Shown here piece after piece: positions 1-23,076 of a stretch of DNA of 32,000 nucleotides (positions are counted from its first letter, which is position 1; each line of letters opens with the position of its first letter). A model generated the notes under the pieces. It saw only the letters and a program-made list of their open reading frames with translations, did not search any database and was not told the DNA's origin. The DNA comes from Akkermansia muciniphila ATCC BAA-835 (GTDB lineage: Bacteria; Verrucomicrobiota; Verrucomicrobiia; Verrucomicrobiales; Akkermansiaceae), in assembly GCF_000020225.1 (NCBI RefSeq), contig NC_010655.1:210001-242000 (forward strand), read 5' to 3'. Position numbers and translations under genes: made by a program.

Positions 1-23
1 CCTGACCCTTTCATTAAGCCCGG

Positions 24-57
24 GGCCTTTTCCGGAATTTCCATTCCGGAAAAGGCC
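24..57 (+). terminator. Putative rho-independent terminator of the gene upstream of the window
   Basis: Hairpin ggccttttccgga / tccggaaaaggcc around an 8-nt loop, followed by a T-rich run (ttctctttcc) just before the symporter start. Confidence 0.4.
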
Positions 58-71
58 TTCTCTTTCCAGGC

Positions 72-1634
72 ATGCTCACGGACCTTTTCGTCATCGTCAT
101 TTACTTTCTTGCTATCTTCTGCATTGGCATTTATGCGGGACGAAAGCAAAACTCCCTGACAGACTATGCCCTGGGCAACCGCTCCCTGCCCTGGTGGGCT
201 ATTCTGGCCTCTATCCTGGCGGCGGAAATCAGCGCGGCCACCTTCCTGGGGGCTCCCGGAGAAGGGTACCATACCCGCAACTTCACATACGCCCAGCTCT
301 GCATCGGCACCATCCTGGGCCGCATCATCGTCGGCAGGCTCTTTCTCAAGCCCTATTATGACTACAAGGTTGTTTCCATCTATGAATACCTGGAAAAAAG
401 ATTCGGGCTCCTGACGCGGCGGACAGCCTCCATGGTCTTCCTGATCAGCCGGGTGCTCGCCAGCGGAACCAGGCTCTATTTCGCGGGCATTCTGCTGGTC
501 ATTGCCTACCAGTTCCTGACAGGCGTCACGGCAGACGCCGACCAGATTGTCCTGCTCTACATTGCCGCCCTGGTTGCCATCTCCGTCGCCACGACAATTT
601 ATACCGCGATCGGAGGATTGAAAGCCGTCGTCTGGACGGACGTCCTCCAGGCCGTCGTTCTGGGAGTCTCCATGCTTTCCGCCCTGTGGGTACTGTTCTC
701 CCATATCCCCGGAGGGTGGAGCTCCATCTCCGCCGCCATGAATGGCGGAGACGATTGGAAATTCTTCTCCTGGGGAACCGGAGAAGGCCTGGACTTCCTC
801 CAACAAGGCGCCCGCGTGCTGGGCCAGGAATACACGGTGTGGGCAGCCTTCCTGGGAGCAACCTTCATCACCATGGCTACGCATGGCACGGACCAGGACA
901 TGGTGCAGCGCATGCTGGCGGCAAAAAACAGCAAGGCGGGAACGCGTGCAGTCATCGTATCCGGCTTGCTGGACTTCCCCATCGTCATCATTTTCCTCTT
1001 CACGGGCATTCTTCTCTATGTCTTCTACCAATACAACCCGGCAAACCTCCCTGCAGACACGCCGCAGCTGCATGTGTTTCCCTACTTCATCATCCATGAA
1101 CTTCCCAACGGCATCCGCGGGCTGCTGATCGCCGGACTTCTGGCGACGGCCATGGGCTCCCTCTCCACGGCTCTAAACTCCCTGGCGACTACCGCCACCA
1201 AGGACTGGTACCAGGGGATATTCAAACCGGAAGCCACGGAACGGCAGCTGCTCCGGTGCGTGCGCTGGGGAACGGCCGTTTTCTCCCTGCTGCTCATCCT
1301 CGTGGGTTCCATCACAGCGTGGTATGTGGTGCATCACCCGGAAGTCCGCATCATCCAAATAGCCCTGGGCATTTTCGGCTATACCTATGGCTCCCTGCTT
1401 GGCATTTTCCTGTTGGGAATGCTGACCCGCACCAGAGGCAGCGACTCAGGAAACATCATTGCCATGGCGGCAGGATTCTTTGTCATCGCTTTACTGACGG
1501 AACTCATCCCTCTGCCCTCCGGCTGGCAACAATATGTTCCGGAAATAGCATTTCCGTGGCGCGTTACCATCGGAACTCTGGTTACTTTTACCGTCGGCTT
1601 CTGTTTCAGAAAACGCCGCCTTCCCATGCGCTGA
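72..1634 (+). CDS. Sodium:solute symporter family (SSF) transporter
   Basis: 520-aa ORF, polytopic and hydrophobic. The N-terminus (IVIYFLAIFCIGIYAGRK...DYALGNRSLPWW..ASILAAEISAATFLGAPGEGY) is typical of SSS-family Na+/solute symporters. Confidence 0.9.
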   Translation: MLTDLFVIVIYFLAIFCIGIYAGRKQNSLTDYALGNRSLPWWAILASILAAEISAATFLGAPGEGYHTRNFTYAQLCIGTILGRIIVGRLFLKPYYDYKVVSIYEYLEKRFGLLTRRTASMVFLISRVLASGTRLYFAGILLVIAYQFLTGVTADADQIVLLYIAALVAISVATTIYTAIGGLKAVVWTDVLQAVVLGVSMLSALWVLFSHIPGGWSSISAAMNGGDDWKFFSWGTGEGLDFLQQGARVLGQEYTVWAAFLGATFITMATHGTDQDMVQRMLAAKNSKAGTRAVIVSGLLDFPIVIIFLFTGILLYVFYQYNPANLPADTPQLHVFPYFIIHELPNGIRGLLIAGLLATAMGSLSTALNSLATTATKDWYQGIFKPEATERQLLRCVRWGTAVFSLLLILVGSITAWYVVHHPEVRIIQIALGIFGYTYGSLLGIFLLGMLTRTRGSDSGNIIAMAAGFFVIALLTELIPLPSGWQQYVPEIAFPWRVTIGTLVTFTVGFCFRKRRLPMR

Positions 1635-1695
1635 ACGGTGAACGCCGTTACTTGGCCACGTTCATGTTCCGCATTCCCCTTCAAACCGCCCCGTC

Positions 1696-3484
1696 AATGG
1701 GAGTAAAGGTGCAAGCGAAAAATAGGGGATTAGGGGATAAAAATCCCTGAGGGGGGGCGCTCCCTGTCCAACGGGTGCGCCGGAACTCCTTCTCCCGGAC
1801 ACAAAAGCGCCGCTTTCCCGGAAAGGGAAAGCGGCGTGAAACGGAATGGAAACACGCTCCCTCCGCTACACTTCTTCGGGGGACAGCCAGCGGAAGGAAA
1901 CGATGTTGAACTTTCTTCCAAACGCCTTGTTCACGGCGCTCAGCTCCGTATCCTCCAGCGCGCCGCTCTTCATGTTGACCTGCCGGGCCGGAGTTTCCGG
2001 GCTGTTCACCGGATCCACGTAGTTGATCCCCCTCTGCACCACCGCTTCGCACCACGCGCGCGACAGCACCACTCCTTCGCGGTTGGCCAGCTCTCCGTAG
2101 GCGCGCACCGTAAACGTATCGTCCCTCGTCGTCAGGATGTTGCCCAGCACCGCCAGCACGTCAGACTGGATCAGGTAGCCGGGGGCGGCCGTATACACCG
2201 ATCCCCTGGCCGCGTCCTGGTTCGGGTAGCCTCCCTTGGGCGCGATCACCATGTCGGAAAGTTCGTCAAACGTGCTGTTGATGGAGCTCTCGTCAATAGC
2301 CGCCTGAAGCGCTCCCTTCACCCCCATTTCCCCGCTCTGCAGACGGCGGTTGACAAAGTCGGACATGTTCAGGAAGGGGCCTCTCTTTTTGACCTCCTTG
2401 ACCATGTTCCGGGCCAGGGACCTGATTTGCGTGTCGCTCAGGGTTCTCAGGTCCGACCACGCCATAGCCTCCCCGTCCGGGATGCCCTGGGTCACCCCTA
2501 TCGAACCATAGTCGTCCACGTGGGACTTGTCGCTGCTGGCCACTCCGAAACGGGAAAAGGACGTCTGGGAGTTGTTGAGCACGGAGGGCCTGCCGCTCCT
2601 GGAATAGAGAATCTTGCGCTTCTTGAGCCCCAGGAGGGTGGCTTCCCAGGCGCGCTGGGAGGTGGAGTTGACATTGAATCCTCCGGCGACGGTGAGGTAC
2701 TTGGAGGCATGCTTGTAGCCTTCGTCCGTTCTGGCGAGTTCTTCGACGACAGCTTCCGAGGGTTTGCCCTGAAGGTCGGGCAGGAAGCGGCGGTTGGCGA
2801 TACCTGAAGCCCTGTTGGATGAAGCGTCCGTAGAGAAAGCCTGCTGAAGCACGGTTTTAAGTTCTTCCCTGCCCGTGCCCCCAAGGCTGGAAGGACGGGC
2901 GGCCAGGGAGGAGGCGAACCAGGAGTCCCAGAGGGCGTCGTTGATCATCAGGCCGTGGTCCCAGAAGTCCCCCAGGGCGGCGTCCCCCATGATTTCGTTG
3001 TGGGAGAAAACCTTGTCGGCAGGAAGCATGGGATCGGCAAAAGCATTGCCGATGCCTACGCCCGGCACGCCGGACTGGTAGGCGAAGCGTTTGGCGATAG
3101 CCGCCCTGGAGTCGCTCCTGTACCATCCCGGGGTGAGGCGGCATCCGGCAAAGCCGGCCAGGCTGGAGGGCTGCTGGAAGGGAAGCTCCGCGGCGACAAT
3201 CTTGTTGACCTGCTCGGCTCCCGGTCCTCCGAAGGGGGAGAGCCTGGTGCCGTCATTGGAGAGGATGTTGGAGATGGTAATCGGGAAGAAATCGCTGTTG
3301 GCGTTCTTGACTTCAAACTGGTACGGGCTGTAGAGGCGCCCCAGTTCGGAGGCGGTGGGCATCTGGCCTCCCCAGAAAAGGGGGCTGGAGTGCTGCCATG
3401 TCTTGGCCCGGTAGTCCTTGCCCTCCGGATAGGCTCCTATCACGGGGGGCTTGCCCCATTTTACCGATACTCCATAGTAGGCGA
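1696..3484. repeat. Outer inverted-repeat arm, left copy (1,789 bp). Partner is 7414..9202.
   Basis: Coordinates pair as x+y=10898. All six-frame ORF translations inside the arm equal those of the partner (e.g. 1836..2807 = 8091..9062, 2498..2884 = 8014..8400, 3056..3316 = 7582..7842). I checked both ends by hand: identity stops at 1696/9202 and 3484/7414. Confidence 0.95.
1800..1836 (-). terminator. Rho-independent terminator of the full-length giant gene (lies inside the outer arm)
   Basis: Mirror image of 9062..9098. A 12-bp GC-rich stem (cgccgctttccc/gggaaagcggcg) is followed on the minus strand by cttttgtgt, about 30 nt after the stop codon. Confidence 0.6.
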
Positions 3485-5765
3485 CAAACGTGGAGTCCAA
3501 AGAGGGCGTGCCGTATTCGCCCGCTTTTTTAGCTTCTTCATTGGTCCCTTCGTTGCGTTCCCACATTTCTGCGGGAAGTTTAATTTGGTCAACAAGAGGT
3601 TTTTCCCAGGCACCCCAGTTCAGGTTGAGGATGGCCGGCATGGTCTTGGAGAAAATTTCTATTTCCGCCGTGCTTTTCCCATTCAGGGAAGAGGAACTGT
3701 TCATTTTGTTGGGATCCATCAGGCCGGCCCCCATCACGAAGGTTCCCAGGGCTTTGGAGGCACCCTTGTCTCCGTATTTGACGGCGAGAACATGATTGTC
3801 CGGCGTTCCGTTGAGCCGGCTGGTATCTTCCGCGAAGATAACGGAAGCCTTGGCAATACCTACCTGGTTATATCCGCTGCCGTCCAGAAGTTCATAACGG
3901 ACGCCGTCCGTCAGGTTGACGGCATAAGAGCTGACTTGTCCCGGTTCCTGGGACCATCCCTCTTTGAGCGGGAATCTGTCCGGTTTGAAATCACCGCTGT
4001 TGGGCTTTGTTTTGTAAACTTCGTTACCGTTGGCGATATTGGAAACGACCGGCTGGGCAAAGACGACGATCTCGCCTGCTTTCAAGGTGGAAGGCTCTCC
4101 CTTGACGGTGGAACCGTCACTGTTAAGTTTGGCCGTAGTTCGGAAAGAGGCGCCGAAATCCGCCACCTGGCGGTTGTTATAAGAAGCGTTCAAATAGGGG
4201 ATCAGGCAGGATTCTCCATAATTGGAGAGTGCATTCTCATCCAGTTGGTTCCATGCGAATTTAACATTATGGGAAAGCAGCAGGGGCATGAAGCGGTGCT
4301 CGCCGAAGTAGGCGCCCCAGACACCTCCGTTGGCCCCGGTCAGCTTCATATCCACATTATAAGGATTCCACCAGACGTACACGGGAATGACGGCAATACG
4401 GAAGTCGATCCATCCTCCACGGTTGGGATGCTTGTTGCCGTGTTTGACGTAGTTAAGTCCTACAAAGGAATAAAAGCGCAGCAGGATGGGATGGCGCATG
4501 TACGTGTAGCGGTTGTCCATCATTTCCATGCTGGCTGCGGAGTCCGCCGCAATCAGCGTGCTGGGAGCGCTTCCATTCCATTGAAGGGTGGCGGAGGCAT
4601 CCTGGCCTTCCCTCTTCGTGGAGGAGTCCCACACGTTCGCCCACAGGTAAAGCTGGTTCCAGGAGCCGATCGGCCGGTTCTGGTCCGACGGGTTGCCGTC
4701 CTCGGACGTGTACGGACGCAACCCTATGTCCGCCGTATCGCCGCGAAATTCTTCAGGAAGTTTTTCCTGGGAAAACATAATGTTGAGGTCTTTCTTAAGA
4801 CCGCCGAATTTAGAATCCGTCAGCAAACTGGAAGAAACCAGAGAGATGTCGTGGTAAACGTCACCCAAATCCTTCAAACGTCCGTTTTTATTGTTGGCCA
4901 GCAGAGAATCAAGAGAGATAAGCTTTCTGACTGCGGACATGTCGTTCCCGGATCCCGCCGTCATTACGGAAGAAAGATTGAGAGACTCCAGATCGGGGCC
5001 GGGCGTATCCCAGGTGGAACGCAGCACCGTCAGGGCATCCGTACTTTCTTCAGAAGCATGCGGCATCAAATTGATACGCGCTTTCTGGTTTTCCCCCGTG
5101 ACCCACCAGGCTATATATTTACGGGAGTTAGCATTCTTTTTCAGTCCTGTGGTCTTGGAGGAATCATCTACGCGCACCATGCGGGCGTAGATTTCCTTTT
5201 TATCCTGATTCCTGGCTCCAACGGGTGTCCCTATCGTGCCTGGTCCCACCAGGGCGACGCTGCGGAAGTTCTGGTTAGAGAGAGAACGTTTGCCCAACAG
5301 GTTTTTACCCGCTTCCAGAGAACTGAGCCTGCGCAAATCAGGGTCGGAAATGAGCCAGCGGCGGAACATGGATTTTCTTCCTGTATCATAGGTGGCCGAG
5401 ATGTTCATACCCTCGGAGTTATTCGTATTGAGCCAGGAATCCCAGCTGTTCCAGACACCCAGAATATAAGGGGCGTTTCCTTCGCTGGTTCCGGAAGAAA
5501 GAATGCCGGAATTGGCGGAAACACGCTGGTCAGGGCCCAATTCACACTGAAGCTGGCCCAAAGCTACTTCCAGGGAAAATCTGGCGAGGGATTTGGCCTC
5601 CGCCGCAAAAAGCTGTTTCTCGGAAATACGGACCTGTGAAGATGCAATGGTTAAAAGGCCGACGCTGAGGAGGGCTAAAAGCATCATCAGGGTAATGGTG
5701 GCAATCAGGGCAAACCCCTTGCTGACATGCCTGACAGGACGTTTAGTGAAAAGTTTGATCTTCAT
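1866..5765 (-). CDS. Giant (~1,299 aa) secreted or surface protein with a GspK/PilX_N-like pseudopilin N-terminus. This is the expressed copy of the two-cassette locus.
   Basis: The ORF is open from 5849. I prefer the ATG at 5765 (MKIKLFTKRPVRHVSKGFALIATITLMMLLALLSVGLLTIASSQVRISEKQLFAAEA...) because it gives a basic leader, then G-F-A-L-I, then a hydrophobic helix. The C-terminal ~560 aa are identical to the plus-strand copy. Confidence 0.85.
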   Translation of the reverse strand: MKIKLFTKRPVRHVSKGFALIATITLMMLLALLSVGLLTIASSQVRISEKQLFAAEAKSLARFSLEVALGQLQCELGPDQRVSANSGILSSGTSEGNAPYILGVWNSWDSWLNTNNSEGMNISATYDTGRKSMFRRWLISDPDLRRLSSLEAGKNLLGKRSLSNQNFRSVALVGPGTIGTPVGARNQDKKEIYARMVRVDDSSKTTGLKKNANSRKYIAWWVTGENQKARINLMPHASEESTDALTVLRSTWDTPGPDLESLNLSSVMTAGSGNDMSAVRKLISLDSLLANNKNGRLKDLGDVYHDISLVSSSLLTDSKFGGLKKDLNIMFSQEKLPEEFRGDTADIGLRPYTSEDGNPSDQNRPIGSWNQLYLWANVWDSSTKREGQDASATLQWNGSAPSTLIAADSAASMEMMDNRYTYMRHPILLRFYSFVGLNYVKHGNKHPNRGGWIDFRIAVIPVYVWWNPYNVDMKLTGANGGVWGAYFGEHRFMPLLLSHNVKFAWNQLDENALSNYGESCLIPYLNASYNNRQVADFGASFRTTAKLNSDGSTVKGEPSTLKAGEIVVFAQPVVSNIANGNEVYKTKPNSGDFKPDRFPLKEGWSQEPGQVSSYAVNLTDGVRYELLDGSGYNQVGIAKASVIFAEDTSRLNGTPDNHVLAVKYGDKGASKALGTFVMGAGLMDPNKMNSSSSLNGKSTAEIEIFSKTMPAILNLNWGAWEKPLVDQIKLPAEMWERNEGTNEEAKKAGEYGTPSLDSTFVAYYGVSVKWGKPPVIGAYPEGKDYRAKTWQHSSPLFWGGQMPTASELGRLYSPYQFEVKNANSDFFPITISNILSNDGTRLSPFGGPGAEQVNKIVAAELPFQQPSSLAGFAGCRLTPGWYRSDSRAAIAKRFAYQSGVPGVGIGNAFADPMLPADKVFSHNEIMGDAALGDFWDHGLMINDALWDSWFASSLAARPSSLGGTGREELKTVLQQAFSTDASSNRASGIANRRFLPDLQGKPSEAVVEELARTDEGYKHASKYLTVAGGFNVNSTSQRAWEATLLGLKKRKILYSRSGRPSVLNNSQTSFSRFGVASSDKSHVDDYGSIGVTQGIPDGEAMAWSDLRTLSDTQIRSLARNMVKEVKKRGPFLNMSDFVNRRLQSGEMGVKGALQAAIDESSINSTFDELSDMVIAPKGGYPNQDAARGSVYTAAPGYLIQSDVLAVLGNILTTRDDTFTVRAYGELANREGVVLSRAWCEAVVQRGINYVDPVNSPETPARQVNMKSGALEDTELSAVNKAFGRKFNIVSFRWLSPEEV
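4477..4819. repeat. Inner inverted-repeat arm, left copy (343 bp, imperfect). Partner is 6034..6376.
   Basis: Coordinates pair as x+y=10853. By manual alignment, the promoter-proximal ~77 bp are roughly 75-80% identical. The remaining ~266 bp have about 11 mismatches, with perfect blocks of roughly 47-68 bp. Confidence 0.9.
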
Positions 5766-6033
5766 GAAAATGATGGGTTTCGGCAGGCCCCTTTCCGTTC
5801 GAGTGTGAGGAGGAAAAACCTCTGCTGTCACAAAGGTGCGAAGAGCCAATTCTTAACTCTAGCCAATACAAAAAAGAGGCAGTTCATGCAAGCTCAAAGT
5901 TGGTTCAACAGGGCACACGTTGAGCAGAGCAAACAGGCTCCGGGACAATTGGAAAGAAAAATAAGGCAAGAAAAATCGCATTTTTATCCAATTCCGTTCT
6001 TAAAGGTTTATATTATGATTTTTATAGAAAAAT
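4820..6033. other. Candidate invertible segment (1,214 bp) bounded by the inner arms. It carries the 5' ~315 codons of the giant gene plus its upstream region.
   Basis: It lies exactly between the inner inverted repeats. It contains the only pilin-like N-terminus and the AT-rich non-coding region. Inversion is inferred, not observed. Confidence 0.45.
5766..6014. promoter_or_regulatory. AT-rich divergent intergenic region, presumed promoter region of the giant gene
   Basis: This is the only sizeable non-coding stretch between the head-to-head genes. It is markedly AT-rich (e.g. aaagaaaaataaggcaagaaaaatcgcatttttatcc, tttatattatgatttttatagaaaaatc). No promoter motif could be assigned confidently. 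Confidence 0.3.
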
Positions 6034-9032
6034 CGGATTCTAAATTCGGTGGATTAAAAAAAGACTTGAATATCATATTTTCTCAAGAAAAACTGCCTGC
6101 GGAATTTCGTGGCGATACGGCGGACATAGGGTTGCGTCCGTACACGTCCGAGGACGGCAACCCGTCGGACCGGAACCGGCCGATTGGCTCCTGGAACCAG
6201 CTTTACCTCTGGGCGAACGTGTGGGACTCCTCCACGAAGAGGGAAGGCCAGGATGCCTCCGCCACCCTTCAATGGAACGGAAGCGCTCCCAGCACGCTGA
6301 TTGCGGCGGATGCCGCGGCGAACCTGGAGATGATGGACAACCGCTACACGTACATGCGCCATCCCATCCTGCTGCGTTATTACAATTTTATCGGTTCTTA
6401 TTTAACAAAGAATGATCGGCAATCTCAAAACGGAGGCTGGATTAACACAGCTGTATCAGTCGTTCTTGTTTATGTCTGGTGGAATCCGTATAATGTGGAC
6501 ATGAAATTTCAGGGAGCCGGAGGAAATCCATGGGGCTCTTACTTTGGCGAACATCGTTTTAAACCCATGCTTTTTGCGGATAACATCGCTTCCTCTGGAC
6601 CTCTTTCCAGCTTAAAAATGTATACGGAGCATCCTTTGACGCCATATACGCAAGGGGCTTTCGGAGCTATACATGATCGGCAGGTAGCCGATTTCGGTGC
6701 CTCTTACAGGAAAACTTCCCGGCTGAACGACGGTACAGGAGAAGTAGTGAAAGGAGAGGTATCTGTTCTTAAAGCAGGAGAAATCGTTGTTTTTTCCCAA
6801 CCATCTACAACTCGTACCAACAAAATTCAAAATGGTGCTGTATATAAATCTAAAAGTGGGGGATATGATATTCGAACGGATAATTTTGCTTTTAGAGAAG
6901 GGTGGCCGCAAGACATGAGTGAGATGGTTTCTTATGGCGTTAATATATACACAGGTCTTCAATATCAATACTTTGAAAGATCTGGCTATCCAACAGAGAA
7001 TAAGTACACGTTTTGGGCCCGCTTTGCGGAAACGGATAATGACCTGATAGGGAATGGAGGAAATACCTCCTTGGGAACTCCTCCCAATCATGTTCTGTGC
7101 CATAAGTATACGGACGAATACAACTCCAATTCCAAAAAATTGGGAACTTTCATGATGGGTGCTGGCATTATGGACGCCAGCCAAATTGGAAAAGATACAC
7201 GTTTAAGCGGGGCTTCCACACCGGACCCTGTCGTTTTTTCTAAGATGTCCCCAACGATGCTCAATCTGAACTGGGGATTTGAGGAACAAATCATGCAGGC
7301 GACAAAAATGCCAGTAGATGGATGGATTAACTTCAAAAGAAATGACGATGAAGATGGCACGAAACGCGGCAAATACGCAGAACCTGAGCCGAACGGTCCA
7401 TTCCCCTATTTCATCGCCTACTATGGAGTATCGGTAAAATGGGGCAAGCCCCCCGTGATAGGAGCCTATCCGGAGGGCAAGGACTACCGGGCCAAGACAT
7501 GGCAGCACTCCAGCCCCCTTTTCTGGGGAGGCCAGATGCCCACCGCCTCCGAACTGGGGCGCCTCTACAGCCCGTACCAGTTTGAAGTCAAGAACGCCAA
7601 CAGCGATTTCTTCCCGATTACCATCTCCAACATCCTCTCCAATGACGGCACCAGGCTCTCCCCCTTCGGAGGACCGGGAGCCGAGCAGGTCAACAAGATT
7701 GTCGCCGCGGAGCTTCCCTTCCAGCAGCCCTCCAGCCTGGCCGGCTTTGCCGGATGCCGCCTCACCCCGGGATGGTACAGGAGCGACTCCAGGGCGGCTA
7801 TCGCCAAACGCTTCGCCTACCAGTCCGGCGTGCCGGGCGTAGGCATCGGCAATGCTTTTGCCGATCCCATGCTTCCTGCCGACAAGGTTTTCTCCCACAA
7901 CGAAATCATGGGGGACGCCGCCCTGGGGGACTTCTGGGACCACGGCCTGATGATCAACGACGCCCTCTGGGACTCCTGGTTCGCCTCCTCCCTGGCCGCC
8001 CGTCCTTCCAGCCTTGGGGGCACGGGCAGGGAAGAACTTAAAACCGTGCTTCAGCAGGCTTTCTCTACGGACGCTTCATCCAACAGGGCTTCAGGTATCG
8101 CCAACCGCCGCTTCCTGCCCGACCTTCAGGGCAAACCCTCGGAAGCTGTCGTCGAAGAACTCGCCAGAACGGACGAAGGCTACAAGCATGCCTCCAAGTA
8201 CCTCACCGTCGCCGGAGGATTCAATGTCAACTCCACCTCCCAGCGCGCCTGGGAAGCCACCCTCCTGGGGCTCAAGAAGCGCAAGATTCTCTATTCCAGG
8301 AGCGGCAGGCCCTCCGTGCTCAACAACTCCCAGACGTCCTTTTCCCGTTTCGGAGTGGCCAGCAGCGACAAGTCCCACGTGGACGACTATGGTTCGATAG
8401 GGGTGACCCAGGGCATCCCGGACGGGGAGGCTATGGCGTGGTCGGACCTGAGAACCCTGAGCGACACGCAAATCAGGTCCCTGGCCCGGAACATGGTCAA
8501 GGAGGTCAAAAAGAGAGGCCCCTTCCTGAACATGTCCGACTTTGTCAACCGCCGTCTGCAGAGCGGGGAAATGGGGGTGAAGGGAGCGCTTCAGGCGGCT
8601 ATTGACGAGAGCTCCATCAACAGCACGTTTGACGAACTTTCCGACATGGTGATCGCGCCCAAGGGAGGCTACCCGAACCAGGACGCGGCCAGGGGATCGG
8701 TGTATACGGCCGCCCCCGGCTACCTGATCCAGTCTGACGTGCTGGCGGTGCTGGGCAACATCCTGACGACGAGGGACGATACGTTTACGGTGCGCGCCTA
8801 CGGAGAGCTGGCCAACCGCGAAGGAGTGGTGCTGTCGCGCGCGTGGTGCGAAGCGGTGGTGCAGAGGGGGATCAACTACGTGGATCCGGTGAACAGCCCG
8901 GAAACTCCGGCCCGGCAGGTCAACATGAAGAGCGGCGCGCTGGAGGATACGGAGCTGAGCGCCGTGAACAAGGCGTTTGGAAGAAAGTTCAACATCGTTT
9001 CCTTCCGCTGGCTGTCCCCCGAAGAAGTGTAG
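6015..9032 (+). CDS. 5'-truncated paralogue (~1,005 aa) of the giant gene with no pilin-like N-terminus. Probable silent or archival cassette.
   Basis: Homology to the minus-strand gene starts at 6034 (DSKFGGLKKDLNI...). The first in-frame ATG near that point is 6015. The ORF stays open back to 5727, but there it overlaps the other gene's start. It holds a diverged middle module and an identical C-terminal ~560 aa. Confidence 0.6.
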   Translation: MIFIEKSDSKFGGLKKDLNIIFSQEKLPAEFRGDTADIGLRPYTSEDGNPSDRNRPIGSWNQLYLWANVWDSSTKREGQDASATLQWNGSAPSTLIAADAAANLEMMDNRYTYMRHPILLRYYNFIGSYLTKNDRQSQNGGWINTAVSVVLVYVWWNPYNVDMKFQGAGGNPWGSYFGEHRFKPMLFADNIASSGPLSSLKMYTEHPLTPYTQGAFGAIHDRQVADFGASYRKTSRLNDGTGEVVKGEVSVLKAGEIVVFSQPSTTRTNKIQNGAVYKSKSGGYDIRTDNFAFREGWPQDMSEMVSYGVNIYTGLQYQYFERSGYPTENKYTFWARFAETDNDLIGNGGNTSLGTPPNHVLCHKYTDEYNSNSKKLGTFMMGAGIMDASQIGKDTRLSGASTPDPVVFSKMSPTMLNLNWGFEEQIMQATKMPVDGWINFKRNDDEDGTKRGKYAEPEPNGPFPYFIAYYGVSVKWGKPPVIGAYPEGKDYRAKTWQHSSPLFWGGQMPTASELGRLYSPYQFEVKNANSDFFPITISNILSNDGTRLSPFGGPGAEQVNKIVAAELPFQQPSSLAGFAGCRLTPGWYRSDSRAAIAKRFAYQSGVPGVGIGNAFADPMLPADKVFSHNEIMGDAALGDFWDHGLMINDALWDSWFASSLAARPSSLGGTGREELKTVLQQAFSTDASSNRASGIANRRFLPDLQGKPSEAVVEELARTDEGYKHASKYLTVAGGFNVNSTSQRAWEATLLGLKKRKILYSRSGRPSVLNNSQTSFSRFGVASSDKSHVDDYGSIGVTQGIPDGEAMAWSDLRTLSDTQIRSLARNMVKEVKKRGPFLNMSDFVNRRLQSGEMGVKGALQAAIDESSINSTFDELSDMVIAPKGGYPNQDAARGSVYTAAPGYLIQSDVLAVLGNILTTRDDTFTVRAYGELANREGVVLSRAWCEAVVQRGINYVDPVNSPETPARQVNMKSGALEDTELSAVNKAFGRKFNIVSFRWLSPEEV
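6034..6376. repeat. Inner inverted-repeat arm, right copy
   Basis: Reverse complement of 4477..4819 with the mismatches described for that arm. Similarity drops abruptly after ...catcccatcctgctgcg. Confidence 0.9.
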
Positions 9033-9202
9033 CGGAGGGAGCGTGTTTCCATTCCGTTTCACGCCGCTTTCCCTTTCCGGGAAAGCGGCGCTTTTGTGTC
9101 CGGGAGAAGGAGTTCCGGCGCACCCGTTGGACAGGGAGCGCCCCCCCTCAGGGATTTTTATCCCCTAATCCCCTATTTTTCGCTTGCACCTTTACTCCCA
9201 TT
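7414..9202. repeat. Outer inverted-repeat arm, right copy (1,789 bp)
   Basis: Reverse complement of 1696..3484. It starts at tcgcctactatgg (codons AYYGVSVKWG...) and ends at ...tttactcccatt, 170 bp after the stop codon at 9032. Confidence 0.95.
9062..9098 (+). terminator. Rho-independent terminator after the plus-strand copy
   Basis: Stem cgccgctttccc, loop tttcc, stem gggaaagcggcg, followed by cttttgtgt. Confidence 0.6.
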
Positions 9203-9361
9203 CATGTACTTCACAAGGGATAAAAGCCCGTCAGGGGCCTGCCATCGCGCTCCGCTGCGCGGGCCGATACCCATGCCCTTCCGCATTTCCTCCGTGCGGT
9301 TATCCGCCAAAGGGTTATGCAATGTATCAAAACTTTTTCCATTCCCCAGAACCCAGAATAT

Positions 9362-10174
9362 ATGCGTATTTTACCCATCCTGGCCTTTACCTGCCTTTTC
9401 GGAAGCATTTCCTTCGCCCAAGGACAGAGCCGCACCCCCTCCAGGCCGGAACCGGCCCAACCGGCAGCAAATGCTCCGGCGGCCGATACCGTGGACAAGT
9501 CCCTGCCGCCAGCCGCCGTCAACGGCATCCGGTTCGTTCTGAAGGAGCCCATGTCTCTTCCTTCTCCCATTTACATGCCTATTGATTCCAAAAGGCTGGA
9601 AAAAGTGGAAATCCGCGCCGCCCTTCCGGGGCGCCGCAGCGTTTACCCCAAGAGCAAGATCATTACCCTGTTCGGGGGCCTGGACCAGAAAGGCATGCCG
9701 ACCAATAAACTCGTCAGCAAGCCCCTGCCGCCCGATCTTGGCTCCAAAACCCTGGCTCTGGTCGGCAAAAACAGCAAAGGGGAATTGACGCTGGATTTTA
9801 TTAATGAGTCGGAACTGCCGCTGAACTGCGTTTACATCCAGAACCTGACCGGACGCACGTTCACTTTGGAACTTCCCAAACCTCCCTCGGGAGAAAAGAG
9901 CGCTATCGAACTGCCCAGCAAATCCACTTACATTTTCGGCAAGAACTCTACAGACAGCAACATTTCCCGCACCACCCCCGCCAATTTGACGTACATGACC
10001 CGTTTAAAGAACGGCAAAGTCGTCAAGGTGAAGGACAGAGGCATGATGCTGACGACCTACCCGGGACGAAAAGTGGTTATGATTATTTCCCCGGATTCCA
10101 CCGGCCGCACCGTCGTTTTGACGGAACTGATGATTTTCAAGGAAAGGCCGGGAGCGGCTTCCTCTGACAAGTAA
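9362..10174 (+). CDS. Secreted hypothetical protein with a signal peptide and Pro/Ala-rich linker
   Basis: The ORF is open from 9317. The ATG at 9362 gives MRILPILAFTCLFGSISFAQG, a signal-peptide-like start. I recognised no family. Confidence 0.6.
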   Translation: MRILPILAFTCLFGSISFAQGQSRTPSRPEPAQPAANAPAADTVDKSLPPAAVNGIRFVLKEPMSLPSPIYMPIDSKRLEKVEIRAALPGRRSVYPKSKIITLFGGLDQKGMPTNKLVSKPLPPDLGSKTLALVGKNSKGELTLDFINESELPLNCVYIQNLTGRTFTLELPKPPSGEKSAIELPSKSTYIFGKNSTDSNISRTTPANLTYMTRLKNGKVVKVKDRGMMLTTYPGRKVVMIISPDSTGRTVVLTELMIFKERPGAASSDK

Positions 10175-10233
10175 ATTTTCTTCCGATATCCGGGAAGCCG
10201 GAAGCTGCTCTGGAGTATATCCGGATTATTCAG

Positions 10234-10262
10234 AAAAACGGGCATTGCTGCCCGTTTTTTTA
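10234..10262 (+). terminator. Rho-independent terminator, possibly bidirectional
   Basis: Sequence aaaaacgggca-ttgc-tgcccgttttttt: a GC-rich stem flanked by an A-run and a T-run, between convergent genes. Confidence 0.7.
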
Positions 10263-10440
10263 TTTTTCTTCTCCTGACGCCATGGATTGAGGGAATAAAC
10301 CACTCCGGACATTTTTCCGGCACGGGAACAATGTCCACCCTGTTTCCCGCGGCTCCAATGCGGCAGGCGGAGAAAGAGGTCTCGAAGCCATGCGGTTTGC
10401 CGAAAAAGTTCACCTGCCGCCTTCCGGCATCCGGGCAGGC

Positions 10441-11613
10441 TTAATAAACTTTGGGCACCAGTCCCTGACGGCTCATCTTATCCTCCACCTTTCGCCGGTT
10501 TTCCTCCAGACGCCGGGCGTCATAGGAATCATCCACAGGCTGGGCCTCCGGAATGTTTTCCCCGCGTCCCGCCCGGTATTGCTGAACCTGCGGGAGCACT
10601 CCTTCCACCAGTTCCCTGCATATCCAGGAAGGCAGGATATAGGTCTCCGTGCGTCCGGCCCGGCTCAGAGCCAGCCCAACAAATTTTCCGTTGACGTCAA
10701 TGACCGGGCATCCAGCCCGTTCCGGGAACAAGGTCATGTCCGACTGGATAACCAAAGGGAATTCATCCCTTTTCAAGCTCATCCGGTTGCCCATGGAGTT
10801 CATCATGTCGAGACGCTTTTGCGGGAATTTCATCACCCTGGGCCTGGGCCCCGTGAGGAGTTTTCCTTCTATCACCTGGTTCCGCCGCCTTACTTCCACG
10901 GGAACCGTCTCACCGGGACGCACCCCGACCATGGCGGCACGGATGGAGTACATTCCATCCACCGGCTTTCCATTCAGCTTCATCAGCACATCGCCGGCCG
11001 TCAATCCGCTGCGGTGCGCGCCGCTTCCGGCTTCCACGCCGCCTATCATGACCCCCTCCCCGTCCCAGCGGGGATCGGAAACAATGCCGAGATAAGGCTG
11101 GTCATCCGCCCGCAGGCTGCGCTGAGCCACGGAAACGACTCCGAAGTCGCTCACATGCCCCGTGGGCGACACGGCTGCAATCACGTCCCCTTCCTTCGCC
11201 TGCACATAGGAATCCAGGTCAATGGGAGGAGCGGGAAGCCCCGGCACATCCATCATCAGCAGATCATGCTCCGGAAGGGCAAAGAGCACCTTGGCGTCAT
11301 AAACCCGCCCGGAAGAATCCACCAGCATGACCGGACGCCGTTCCTTCTGGAGATCGCTCAGCTTGGTGAGGACTTTTCCCTTCCCCACCACTGTTCCCAA
11401 AGCCACCTGGGTATTGCCGGCAACCAGAGCCACTACGGACTGCCCCACCGGAACAGCCACCTTGTCCCATTCCCGGAAAATCTCCTTGGCCTGGCTGTCC
11501 AGCACGCTTTTGTCCTCCGGGGCAATCATCTGCTCCGGAGGCAGCGGGGAAGCTATTTCCTGGGCATACGCGGAAGCCGCCGCAAATGCCGCCCATAAAT
11601 ATTTCATCATCAT
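10441..11613 (-). CDS. Trypsin-fold (S1C/HtrA-like) protein with an internal PDZ domain, apparently lacking catalytic His and Ser
   Basis: It has a signal peptide (MMMKYLWAAFAAASAYAQE). HtrA-like blocks are present, but TKLSDL stands where T-N-A-H-V is expected and PERAGCPVID where G-N-S-G-G-P is expected. A PDZ-like segment (GVMIGGVEAGSGAHRSGLTAGDVLMKLNGKPV...) sits between the blocks. Confidence 0.7.
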   Translation of the reverse strand: MMMKYLWAAFAAASAYAQEIASPLPPEQMIAPEDKSVLDSQAKEIFREWDKVAVPVGQSVVALVAGNTQVALGTVVGKGKVLTKLSDLQKERRPVMLVDSSGRVYDAKVLFALPEHDLLMMDVPGLPAPPIDLDSYVQAKEGDVIAAVSPTGHVSDFGVVSVAQRSLRADDQPYLGIVSDPRWDGEGVMIGGVEAGSGAHRSGLTAGDVLMKLNGKPVDGMYSIRAAMVGVRPGETVPVEVRRRNQVIEGKLLTGPRPRVMKFPQKRLDMMNSMGNRMSLKRDEFPLVIQSDMTLFPERAGCPVIDVNGKFVGLALSRAGRTETYILPSWICRELVEGVLPQVQQYRAGRGENIPEAQPVDDSYDARRLEENRRKVEDKMSRQGLVPKVY

Positions 11614-12662
11614 CCTTGAGTTTGTTCCTGGTATTTCAGGCCGGACATCAGGTCGCCGCGCCTGCCGAATGTAAGATCCGCCTTGTAAGCCGTACCTTTC
11701 CTCACCACCACCAATGGAACGGTTTCCCCCGGACGGTGCCTGCCCAGTTCACGGAGCATATCCCGCACGGAACGCAGGCTCCGGCTGTCCATATGGGTAA
11801 TGACGTCCCCCGGCTGGATGCCGGCGGTATCCGCCGGAGAATTCACCACAACGTCTTCCACCACCACGCCGTCCACGCCCAGCACATCCATCATGGCAAA
11901 CCCGAGCACAGGAGATTCGGGGTCCGCCATGGGATGAAGGCCCAGCTGGCCCCAATGCCTGCCGGAGAGCAGTTTGTCCCAGTCTCTCCTGAAAACGGAA
12001 ACAGGGACATGGTTGTTGATTTTCAACATAGGGCCAATGGAGGAATGGATGCCAACCAACTTGCCGGACAGGTCAAAGAGGGGACCGCCGGAATCTCCGC
12101 CAATCAGCGTACATTCCGAAATAAGGAAGCGCTGCTTTCCGTCCGTGCACAATCTTCCCATGCGGATGGGCGCGCGGCGTTCCGGGTCAAATCCCTTGGA
12201 ATGGCCCAGAGCCACCACAAAATCCCCCACATGAAGACCGTCGGATTCCCCCAGTTCCACATGAGGATAGTTTCCTCCGTCCATGATTTGCACCATGGCG
12301 GCATCCCGCGTGAAGTTGGCGCCCAGCACCCGTCCCTTTACCACGCGCCCGTCGGCAAAGACCACACGCATGATTTCATCGCCGCCCACGACGTGGGCCG
12401 CCGTCAAAATCAGGCCCCGCGGAGAGACAATGACGCCGCTGCCCGTCTCTCCCCCGTCGGAAACCAGAGCCACCGTAGCAGCCGTAACCCTGGAGGCCAC
12501 CTCATGCACATGTTTCTGCAAATCCGCCATGGAAGAAACATTCCCCGCAAGGCTCGCCCCCCCTGACAGCAGGGACACAAGCCCCCCAACGACCAAGCAA
12601 CAAAAACTCGTCATTCTCAATAGTGATATCATGAAATTACCGATAATCGAATGATAGGACAT
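11610..12662 (-). CDS. Trypsin-like serine protease (S1C family) with a C-terminal PDZ domain
   Basis: The catalytic triad context is present: LILTAAHVV (His), RDAAMVQI (Asp), GGDSGGPLFD (Ser). The C-terminal PDZ reads GVVVEDVVVNSPADTAGIQPGDVITHMD. Its stop overlaps the next gene's start by 4 nt (ATGA). The exact start is uncertain. Confidence 0.85.
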   Translation of the reverse strand: MSYHSIIGNFMISLLRMTSFCCLVVGGLVSLLSGGASLAGNVSSMADLQKHVHEVASRVTAATVALVSDGGETGSGVIVSPRGLILTAAHVVGGDEIMRVVFADGRVVKGRVLGANFTRDAAMVQIMDGGNYPHVELGESDGLHVGDFVVALGHSKGFDPERRAPIRMGRLCTDGKQRFLISECTLIGGDSGGPLFDLSGKLVGIHSSIGPMLKINNHVPVSVFRRDWDKLLSGRHWGQLGLHPMADPESPVLGFAMMDVLGVDGVVVEDVVVNSPADTAGIQPGDVITHMDSRSLRSVRDMLRELGRHRPGETVPLVVVRKGTAYKADLTFGRRGDLMSGLKYQEQTQG

Positions 12663-20994: not shown

Positions 20995-21924
20995 TTACCT
21001 GCCTCCGGCACCCAGCCATTCCAGGCACAGCCAGCGGGCCATGGAGGCGATCACCCGGTCACAAGCGGATTCAGAATCCTTTGAATCCCTGATGAACACG
21101 GAAACCGCCATTTTCCGGCCGTTGGGAAGAACAATGATGCCGACGTCATTGCGGGCGGTAACGCCACCCCCCGGCAGCGTGAATCCGGATCCCGTCTTAT
21201 GCGCCACCACGTAATCCCGCGGCAGCTGCCCTTTCAGACGTTCAGGACCTGTAGAACATCCCGCCATGATGTTCCAAAGAACACTCTGTGTGCCTTTTTT
21301 CAAAATTTTACCTTCGTCAAACGCCCGGAGAAGGGAGTTCATGGCCGACGGACGGCTTGAGTTGACATATTGCAAATCATGATTCCGGTGTATTTCTTCT
21401 TCCGTAAAACGGACATTAATGCCGTCAATTCCCCATTCCTTCAAATCCTTCTGCACGGCCTGCGGCCCTCCAATAAGGCCAAACAGGAGGTCGCAGGTAT
21501 TGTTGTCGCTTTCCTGGACAGTCACTCTCAGCAGTTCCTTCAGAGAGAAATCGCCGCCTTGCGGGAAACGCTCCCGGAGGGGGCTCCAGGTATCTTTCAC
21601 CAGTTGTTCCGGACGTATGCGGATGATCTGTTCCAGATTCATGGCGCCCTGGTCCACCCGCTTCAAGACGGACAAGGCCAGCACGAATTTGACGACGCTC
21701 TGCATGGGATAGGCCGCCTCATCCCCCACCATGACGGTTTCCCCCGTATCCAGCATTTCCGCAGCCATGCCCACACGGGCCTTCAGGGAATGGGCCAGTT
21801 CGCGTACGGCGGAGGAATCCGCTGCGGAAACGGCTGGCGGAGAAGACGTGGCCCCCTGAGAAAAAACGCAAAAGAACATGATGCAACCGCATAGATAAAC
21901 ACCGGTGGAAGTCATAGGCGCCAT
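20995..21924 (-). CDS. Class A beta-lactamase
   Basis: A signal peptide is followed by PMQSVVKF (S-x-x-K), ESDNNTCD (S-D-N) and HKTGSG (K-T-G), in canonical order and spacing. Confidence 0.85.
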   Translation of the reverse strand: MAPMTSTGVYLCGCIMFFCVFSQGATSSPPAVSAADSSAVRELAHSLKARVGMAAEMLDTGETVMVGDEAAYPMQSVVKFVLALSVLKRVDQGAMNLEQIIRIRPEQLVKDTWSPLRERFPQGGDFSLKELLRVTVQESDNNTCDLLFGLIGGPQAVQKDLKEWGIDGINVRFTEEEIHRNHDLQYVNSSRPSAMNSLLRAFDEGKILKKGTQSVLWNIMAGCSTGPERLKGQLPRDYVVAHKTGSGFTLPGGGVTARNDVGIIVLPNGRKMAVSVFIRDSKDSESACDRVIASMARWLCLEWLGAGGR

Positions 21925-22700: not shown

Positions 22701-23021
22701 ATGGATGCACCTGTTCCGATACCCGTCGCCATGATGGCAGGTTTCATGATTCTTGGAGCCATTCTTTCCATGGGGAAATGTTCCTTCCTCATCGCAGGCT
22801 ACAGCATGATGAACAGAGGGCAGAAAAAGCAATATGATGAACAGGCGCTGTGCCGGTTCATGGGGAAGATCATGTACTGCCTCGCCTTCGCCATGCTGCT
22901 CTGGCTCTCCAGCATCATTCTCCAGAACTCCGTGCTCCTGTCCGCCTCCCTGTACTTTCTGGTGGGAAGCATTGCATTTGCGGTCATTTACGCTGGCGCC
23001 GGAAGCCGGTTCAAAAAATAG
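22701..23021 (+). CDS. DUF3784-family small membrane protein
   Basis: The segment GKCSFLIAGYSMMNRGQKKQYDEQALCRFMGKI matches the characteristic LIAGYNTMS..EK.KYD...L.RF.G pattern, flanked by TM helices. Confidence 0.65.
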   Translation: MDAPVPIPVAMMAGFMILGAILSMGKCSFLIAGYSMMNRGQKKQYDEQALCRFMGKIMYCLAFAMLLWLSSIILQNSVLLSASLYFLVGSIAFAVIYAGAGSRFKK

Positions 23022-23076
23022 CATTTTTTACACCAGCTTTCTTTTACTTTTATTATACGCAACATTATCTTTTCCC

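Follow-up and report, generated by a model that had tools for sequence, protein, structure and literature searches.

A probable recombinational switch with two cassettes for a giant, N-terminally pseudopilin-like protein of Akkermansia muciniphila

Two giant genes that face each other were analysed in a stretch of 32,000 nucleotides (nt) of Akkermansia muciniphila strain ATCC BAA-835, referred to below as the window. The analysis indicated that the pair probably forms a switch that works by recombination between two cassettes and alters a giant protein whose N-terminus resembles a pseudopilin. This reading is carried by the nested inverted repeats that hold the two genes, by metagenome contigs in which the same N-terminal segment is fused to a module other than the one expressed in the window, and by the positions of the crossovers in these contigs. 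A switch of this kind had been proposed from inspection of the letters of the window (the original prediction).

The repeat search over window positions 1-12000 revealed an outer inverted repeat, 1696-3484 / 7414-9202, of 1,789 nt with 100% complementarity and 3,929 nt between the arms. An inner inverted repeat, 4471-4819 / 6034-6382, of 349 nt with 92% complementarity and 1,214 nt between the arms, lies within it. Besides these two pairs no further long repeats were found in the 32-kb window. The length of the repeats excludes a chance origin. The outer arms are exactly those of the original prediction, while its inner arms (4477..4819 / 6034..6376, 343 nt) differ trivially in length from the arms given here. 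The elements of the locus are as follows.

1866..5765, minus strand: expressed full-length gene, from its open reading frame (ORF) and translation; 1,299 amino acids (aa), starting MKIKLF (MKIKLFTKRPVRHVSKGFALIATITLMMLLALL)
4820..5765, minus strand: 5' coding segment unique to this gene, codons 1-315 plus the first base of the next codon (316), with no counterpart in the plus copy
5766..6033, no strand: AT-rich (41% GC) non-coding spacer from the gene start to the silent cassette, from sequence and GC content
4804..4819, minus strand: 16-nt core CGGATTCTAAATTCGG, which forms the inner end of the left inner arm and encodes T-D-S-K-F-G
6034..6049, plus strand: partner 16-nt core CGGATTCTAAATTCGG, exactly where the homology of the silent cassette begins
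4471..4819, minus strand: left inner arm, codons 316-431, 349 nt
6034..6382, plus strand: right inner arm, 349 nt
3485..4470, minus strand: module A, the variable cassette in the full-length gene; 986 nt, ~329 codons, GC 52%
6383..7413, plus strand: module B, the silent variable cassette; 1,031 nt, ~344 codons, GC 44%, GC at third codon positions (GC3) 40%
4351..4376, minus strand: conserved island in module A (VWWNPYNVD), a secondary crossover point
6474..6499, plus strand: partner conserved island in module B, counterpart of the VWWNPYNVD island
6034..9032, plus strand: silent 5'-truncated cassette gene; 999 codons from core to stop, ORF intact, with …SDSKFGGLKK… where the homology sets in
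1696..3484, minus strand: left outer arm, with 539 codons of the C-terminus, their stop and a 3' flank of 170 nt; terminator-like hairpin at 1808-1836
7414..9202, plus strand: right outer arm, 1,789 nt; terminator-like hairpin at 9062-9090

Along the full-length gene, a pseudopilin-like N-terminal segment is followed by the inner-arm region, by module A and by a conserved C-terminal body; these parts correspond to residues 1-315, 316-431, 432-760 and 761-1299 of the protein. The plus copy faces it as a 5'-truncated paralogue, as had been described, and its homology to the full-length gene starts only at 6034. The unique 5' segment carries a prepilin-like hydrophobic segment (KGFALIATITLMMLLALL) and is single-copy in the window, in accordance with the earlier claim that the N-terminal leader occurs only between the inner arms. 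Across 21 metagenome contigs the N-terminal segment was 100% identical in amino acids. Modules A and B share 42% amino-acid identity, and their lengths differ by 15 codons (45 nt), a difference that keeps the frame and agrees with the figure given beforehand. The predicted chimera of the N-terminus and module B is in frame and has 1,314 aa. The spacer 5766..6033 is presumed, from its sequence, to hold the only promoter. On the plus strand no stop codon interrupts the frame of the silent copy over the ~100 codons upstream of the core (5727-6033), which span the spacer and reach the beginning of the gene opposite, and gene callers therefore assign artificial starts to the silent copy (1,002-1,048 aa).

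The same nested layout was found in another strain, on the 2.76-Mb contig L002, where the order is symporter, full gene, truncated copy and a 270-aa gene. The outer arms of this contig are 1,796 nt long at 100% identity, and the inner arms are 366 nt long at 93% identity with 1,214 nt between them. Its silent module is of another type, m20, and the conserved island appears there as a 56-nt repeat at 96%. The repetition of the layout rules out an assembly artefact of the window.

In the proposed mechanism, one promoter and the first 316 codons would lie between two oppositely oriented cassettes, each made of a 349-nt conserved 5' arm, a variable module and a conserved 3' body of 1.8 kb that has a terminator of its own. 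Reciprocal homologous recombination where the 5' arms are nearly identical, or at the small island inside the module, would invert the promoter-bearing piece and join it in frame to the other module, and the previous module would turn silent. Exchange between the 1.8-kb 3' arms would flip the core, leave the protein unchanged and keep the arms identical. Module A would be the usual expressed form, and the AT-richer B, m20 and m24 would rarely be in the majority. The exchange would presumably depend on RecA and would be reversible within a clone.

The metagenome contigs were scanned for the junction of the N-terminus with the core, which gave 21 loci; with other loci included, about 30 contigs were classified by tblastn using the module types. 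The commonest state among the classified contigs was A expressed and B, m20 or m24 silent. The N-terminus was found fused to m24 in L017 and L031 (OHVJ01000961.1), to m20 in L025 (OXEG01004030.1) and to B in L024 (OKSR01005766.1), and module A was found in the promoter-less position in L008, L028 (OJNI01008529.1) and L030. Each of the cassette types A, B, m20 and m24 was found in both the expressed and the silent position. The four fusions of the N-terminus to a module other than A, together with the three contigs carrying a silent A, all of them short-read metagenome contigs, support the module exchange that had been foreseen. The silent-A contigs lead us to infer that the exchange is reciprocal.

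The swapped-module contigs showed 100% amino-acid identity in the N-terminus. The expressed m24 of L031 was 99.2-99.9% identical in nucleotides to the silent m24 of L013, L015, L016 and L020, and the expressed m20 of L025 was 99.3% identical to the silent m20 of L002. The fused ORFs were intact in L031 (1,348 aa), L017 (1,335 aa) and L025 (1,311 aa), and frameshifted in L024. Contig L008, an 888-nt scaffold with module A in a silent context, was first judged a likely chimera on account of a 25-nt deletion; it was retained as weak support only, L028 and L030 sharing its arrangement. Another candidate, the full-length protein P0012 with a B-like module at 74%, was rejected as evidence for switching, its gene lying at another locus beside pstB in a lineage that is 77-79% identical in nucleotides.

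The positions of the crossovers were then read against the identity profile of the inner arms. The core (nt 1-16) is identical between the arms, and the next 60 nt (nt 16-76) contain 16 mismatches, of which 11 are synonymous (the proportion of differing synonymous sites, pS, is 0.86 and that of non-synonymous sites, pN, is 0.08). From nt 77 to nt 243 there are only 3 mismatches (~98% identical), and a short diverged block follows at nt 277-295. In every one of the 30-plus contigs the diverged 60-nt block stayed with its position, and the switch of type always lay further downstream, at nt 77 to ~370 from the core or at the conserved island inside the module. The following positions were obtained.

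L031: crossover at nt 77-137 from the core
L024 and L017: crossover at nt 175-244 from the core
L028: crossover at nt 245-276 from the core
L008 and L025: crossover beyond nt 296 from the core
L017 and L024: second switch at the VWWNPYNVD island inside the module

Crossovers that are scattered and yet keep to near-identical sequence are what characterises homologous recombination, and they support the proposal that exchange takes place within the inner arms. The single-switch contigs with intact ORFs, L025 and L031, are, together with L028, the harder ones to dismiss. The identical stretch in L028 measures only 32 nt, which is below typical k-mer sizes, so that a path switch by the assembler is unlikely there.

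Several observations weigh against a working switch. All the inner-flip contigs come from short-read metagenome assemblies, and the coverage of some is low (2.6x for L017, 5.3x for L025 and 1.7x for L030). The arms contain identical stretches of 60-76 nt, which could mislead an assembler running at k=55 into wrong exits. Several switches are seen in L017, L024 and L008, the last with its deletion. In the long-read or complete contigs A was expressed in all, so that the fusion of the N-terminus to module B, which had been expected in relatives, was seen in the metagenome contig L024 and in none of these. No single contig among those classified carried both a new expressed module and a silent A. 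The protein searches returned no full-length protein with B, m20 or m24, compared to 841 members for the A form, and the exact chimera of the N-terminus with module B had no match in the protein-database searches. A scan of 5766-6033 with the sigma-70 consensus gave no match. Frameshifts occur in some silent copies (L014, L032 and L050), and pN/pS within the silent module B was ~0.5-1.4 on very few differences, with no clear signal of purifying selection. As to the missing proteins, searches with 350-450-aa queries, among them the one with the N-terminus and m24, returned short fragments only and missed known full-length relatives; absence from the protein database is therefore weak evidence.

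These points would suit a static locus, an inverted partial duplication whose truncated copy decays as a relic and stays similar through conversion alone; the outer arms might invert, the expressed protein would in practice stay the same, and the flipped contigs would be mis-joins or mixtures of strains. Such a relic would account for the A-expressed state of every long-read or complete contig, the 841-member full-length A cluster with no full-length alternative returned, the frameshifts in the silent copies, and the low coverage and multiple switches of several flipped contigs. The base composition also fits it, the alternatives having a GC3 of 29-40% against 62% for A, as is expected for long-silent DNA under AT-biased mutation. 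It is nevertheless considered improbable. Seven independent contigs from different samples carry the predicted products, including single-crossover cases and intact fused ORFs, and silent cassettes of ~1,000 codons are intact in 8 loci. Moreover, the types of silent cassette vary between near-identical strains while the arms stay identical, which is unlike a relic.

Among strains with near-identical termini the silent module types were B (328 members), m24 (498), m20 (40) and m19 (16), and the silent position of other strains was occupied by m20, m24 or m18. Across the cassette types the variable modules measure ~330-380 codons. The GC3 was 73-80% in the outer arms, and GC was 38-42% in m20 and m24 (GC3 29-38%). 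To judge from composition, the contrast in GC3 fits a habitually expressed A, with the others mostly silent or foreign; long silence, foreign origin and GC-biased conversion in the arms are possible causes of the GC contrast. One frameshift lies near window positions 6857-6861, where L014 has four G in a run that is otherwise five G. The silent-copy frameshifts could be real decay, slippage or sequencing error.

A second alternative concerns the way in which the modules move. Non-reciprocal gene conversion, as in pilE/pilS, by double crossovers in the inner and outer arms and with no inversion, would suit a silent copy that is 5'-truncated, promoter-less and flanked by conserved 5' and 3' homology. 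The single-nucleotide polymorphisms of the inner arm are mosaic even in the complete contig L002, and these mosaic tracts and the hybrid modules of L017 and L024 look like conversion tracts; the identical outer arms likewise show that conversion is active. The silent A of L008, L028 and L030 is, on the other hand, what a reciprocal exchange by inversion would leave behind, and not what one-way conversion would. Because the copies stand in opposite orientation, a single crossover yields a viable inversion, and the outer-arm isomers show that crossovers resolve as inversions at this locus. Conversion by itself was accordingly rated very unlikely.

The isomers in question result from exchange in the outer arms. 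In long-read or large contigs the full gene adjoins the symporter in L002, L013 and L016, and the silent copy adjoins it in L015 (a 3.01-Mb contig), L023 (a 267-kb contig) and L050. The flip of the whole core between the outer arms, which the original prediction had put forward, thus occurs in nature in both orientations. Contigs L001 and L010 were discounted as proof of this inversion because short reads cannot span 1.8 kb. In the window, in L002 and in L023 the two outer arms matched each other at 100% identity, and between strains the arms diverged by 1-2%. Arms that are identical within strains and divergent between them are evolving in concert, the two copies recombining continually. In distant Akkermansia species a single gene without a silent copy lies between the symporter and the 285-aa gene, which indicates that the inverted partial duplication is derived.

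The core requires separate consideration, as it could point to a different kind of recombination. Two exact matches to it were found in the window, and 0.27 chance matches are expected at 3 or fewer mismatches. The Akkermansia inverton repeat has been given as CGGATT..AATCCG (Jiang et al. 2019, as quoted in PMC13343947 and PMC11892184); the supplements of PMC11892184 contained no Akkermansia coordinates. The core CGGATTCTAAATTCGG resembles this repeat as so quoted, and its right half departs by one base from the perfect palindrome of a paralogous locus, referred to as the pstB locus. The latter holds a paralogous gene of another A. muciniphila lineage, and contig L009 has the full 1,305-aa gene, divergent from pstB. 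Comparison of L007 with L009 revealed flanks that are 99.4% identical and a promoter and N-terminal segment of ~1.2 kb that is inverted, with 1,167 nt between the cores. The coordinates and half-sites of this inversion are as follows.

L009:9764-10962 versus L007:39-1237: inverted pstB-locus segment, with breakpoints inside the 16-nt core
L009 half-sites: gene/cassette side …CTAAATTCGG, pstB side …CTAAATCCGC
L007 half-sites: gene/cassette side …ATAAATTCGG, pstB side …ATAAATCCGC

The half-sites of L007 and L009 are thus exchanged inside the core. In L007 the N-terminus reads into the DNA upstream of pstB and ends after the core, with a 362-aa product. The protein clusters contained 220 members of the ON form and 94 of the OFF form. 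The repeat at this locus measures only 12-19 nt, which is too short for efficient homologous recombination, and a site-specific event is therefore the most likely origin of the inversion. On the pstB side the partner site stands alone in non-coding DNA as a perfect palindrome, CGGATTCTAAATCCG. The stub of the OFF state measures 322-362 aa and is annotated as 'pseudopilin PulG' by one source.

A trans-encoded site-specific invertase acting at the 16-nt cores could in the same way flip the 1,214-nt piece of the window, the scattered crossovers then being conversion or assembly noise. Identical inverted 16-mers do stand exactly where the silent homology starts, with the 16 mismatches directly after them, and the resemblance to the quoted CGGATT..AATCCG repeat and the inversion between L009 and L007, with ON and OFF both common, add to the case. 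The central dinucleotide of the core covaries between partner sites (CT/CT, AT/AT and GC/GC in the window, L005/L006, L007 and L009), which is expected if the crossover region must match. Short CGGATT promoter invertons also lie upstream of paralogues in another species. The contigs of the window type nevertheless speak for exchange away from the core. The 60 nt that follow the core are linked to position in all 30-plus of them, the N-terminus being always followed by cggtcttaag and the silent side by tggatt, and no core-level exchange was found among these contigs. A dedicated metagenome-contig scan for the junction of N-terminus, core and TGGATT gave 0 matches compared to 21 parental junctions; a core-level junction would read CCAGTTTGCTGACGGATTCTAAATTCGGTGGATTAAAAAAAGAC. 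No recombinase is encoded in the 32-kb window, and both of its cores are of the imperfect AAATTCGG type, unlike the perfect CGGATTnnnAATCCG palindrome of the pstB-side partner. An invertase as the agent of the exchange in the window is hence regarded as unlikely. Homologous recombination in the inner arms is preferred, and at loci of the window type the core would be a footprint of the origin of the cassette and possibly a minor second, site-specific route; a cognate invertase may act in trans.

Signs of site-specific inversion extend to other members of the family. In a distant species, AT-rich segments of 300-330 nt lie between inverted CGGATT repeats of ~11-20 nt upstream of giant-gene paralogues (L044:6432-6800 and L046:6546-6869), and the L044 segment, placed between two divergent paralogues, looks like a promoter toggle. 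The m18 cassette, silent at the symporter locus of one genome, was found in another genome beside the pstB-locus invertible segment (L005:1-2625 versus L010:2676-4145, 99.3% nucleotide identity), and the N-terminal segment of L005 is of a third type with 80-85% nucleotide identity. This arrangement suggests an exchange between the symporter and pstB loci, possibly a large chromosomal inversion by way of the cores. Judged by these sites, the giant-gene family is a habitual target of the Akkermansia inversion machinery. The original prediction, which does not mention the 16-nt core, had set the locus apart from fimS-type invertons. The contrast is less sharp than was stated because relatives use such sites to invert a promoter together with the 5' part of a gene.

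A wider reading, offered only tentatively, is that of a family-wide '5'-exon inverton', in which an invertase site lies in frame at the DSKFGG motif conserved in giant pseudopilin-like genes and a mobile promoter and anchor joins or leaves alternative bodies. Its forms in the data would be the on/off change at pstB, the cassette swap in the window and the promoter toggle between divergent paralogues. If it holds, homologous and site-specific inversion would cooperate, and exchange between distant loci could cause large inversions, as L005 hints.

The locus was compared with known switching systems. In the sap system of Campylobacter fetus the promoter lies on an invertible piece between opposed homologous cassettes, which recombine homologously in their conserved 5' regions. 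Nested inversions that differ in size are found there, the S-layer protein undergoes antigenic replacement, and the homologues are complete ORFs. The original prediction had named sap as precedent, and the opposed cassettes, the layout of the presumed promoter piece and the isomers with crossovers in the 5' region agree with it; the silent copy of the window differs in that it is not a complete ORF. At the present locus the first 316 codons travel with the mobile piece, which makes the silent copy a headless gene fragment. There are only two cassettes per genome, a second, silent inversion comes from the 1.8-kb 3' arm with its 100% identity, an invertase-type core marks the cassette boundary, and the protein is pseudopilin-like, not an S-layer protein.

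The shufflon of R64 (pilV/Rci), Moraxella tfpQ/I (Piv), the G segment of Mu (Gin) and the susC-type shufflon of B. thetaiotaomicron have an adjacent recombinase and short sites, and several shufflon- or Piv-type systems vary pilus tip or pilin proteins. As in these systems, a constant N-terminus with a single promoter is joined by inversion to alternative C-terminal parts; unlike them, the window has no adjacent recombinase and its crossovers are spread over ~300 nt of homology. In Neisseria, pilE is changed by non-reciprocal gene conversion from many silent pilS copies. The likeness lies in promoter-less, 5'-truncated silent copies that feed one expression site of a pilin-like protein, and the difference in the single inverted silent copy and the reciprocal products (silent A) found here. 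The Akkermansia CGGATT invertons share with the locus the species and the type of repeat at the ends of the flipped piece. As described in PMC13343947 and PMC11892184, they are short intergenic promoter flips with ~16-nt repeats (cps1), the cited example being ~158 nt. By comparison, the piece here measures 1.2 kb and extends into 5' coding sequence, the reading frame contains the site (DSKFGG motif), and the exchanges observed at the window locus are homologous and off the core. The window locus is thus outside the class of short promoter invertons, though its relatives are inside it. Full-text literature searches turned up no published description of this locus.

Akkermansia muciniphila is a leading candidate therapeutic commensal of the gut; colonisation varies among its strains, and specific immunoglobulin A and T-cell responses are raised against it. 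A replaceable module of ~340 residues in a 1,300-residue protein with a pilus-like anchor, which would probably be exposed at the surface, would underlie antigenic or adhesive variation within a strain. Switching of the module could also underlie escape from phage or from immunity. Variation of this kind is invisible to short-read assemblies and to finders of short-repeat invertons. The locus would further illustrate an evolutionary path from the architecture of a site-specific inverton to a cassette switch based on homologous recombination.

The identity of the giant protein was examined by sequence, profile and fold searches. Its homologues in the protein database are named Akkermansia muciniphila or Akkermansia sp.; the full-length product is 100% identical to protein cluster P0001 (841 members), and the silent copy corresponds to cluster P0022 (328 members). 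Over its first ~60 residues the protein shows weak similarity to TIGR02600 (E = 1.6e-4), the model of Verru_Chthon cassette protein A, and to GspK of the type II secretion system (E = 1.4e-3). The scores were 19.7 bits against a cut-off of 332.3 for TIGR02600 and 18.2 bits against 130 for NF037980 GspK, with the match confined to residues 16-78. As these scores fall far below the curated cut-offs, the term pilin-like refers only to the N-terminal hydrophobic segment. The N-terminal sequence ...HVSKGFALIATITLMMLLALLSVGLL was compared with a prepilin-type leader (basic leader, Gly, hydrophobic helix), and the segment is invariant across the protein family. The prepilin-like segment has no Glu5 (KGFALIATITLM), as is also the case for GspK. 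The protein resembles Verru_Chthon cassette protein A in its giant size, ~1,300 aa compared to 1,296 positions in the TIGR02600 model; unlike in that cassette system, no B, C or D cassette partners lie near the gene.

The Pfam, NCBIfam and PDB sequence and profile searches gave no Pfam domain and no PDB relative for the giant protein. The AlphaFold model of residues 316-840 showed the module with confidence (predicted local distance difference test, pLDDT, above 90) and mostly as beta strands, and a fold search of the modelled module against the PDB gave no match. The model of the C-terminal region was poor.

The neighbouring genes are ordinary chromosomal ones, encoding a sodium:solute symporter, two HtrA-like proteases, PBP1A and RmuC. 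No recombinase gene was found in the flanks of the related loci, including the pstB locus. The gene next to the pair is

9317..10174, plus strand: predicted secreted protein of 285 aa with a signal-like N-terminus and no family match

This 285-aa gene follows the giant gene in every species examined (synteny in L038, L039, L041 and L044; 28-80% identity), and its product may be a functional partner of the giant protein. Further downstream are a class A beta-lactamase family gene (20995-21924, minus strand) and a GH95 (fucosidase-type) gene (22834-25443, plus strand), which are apparently unrelated.

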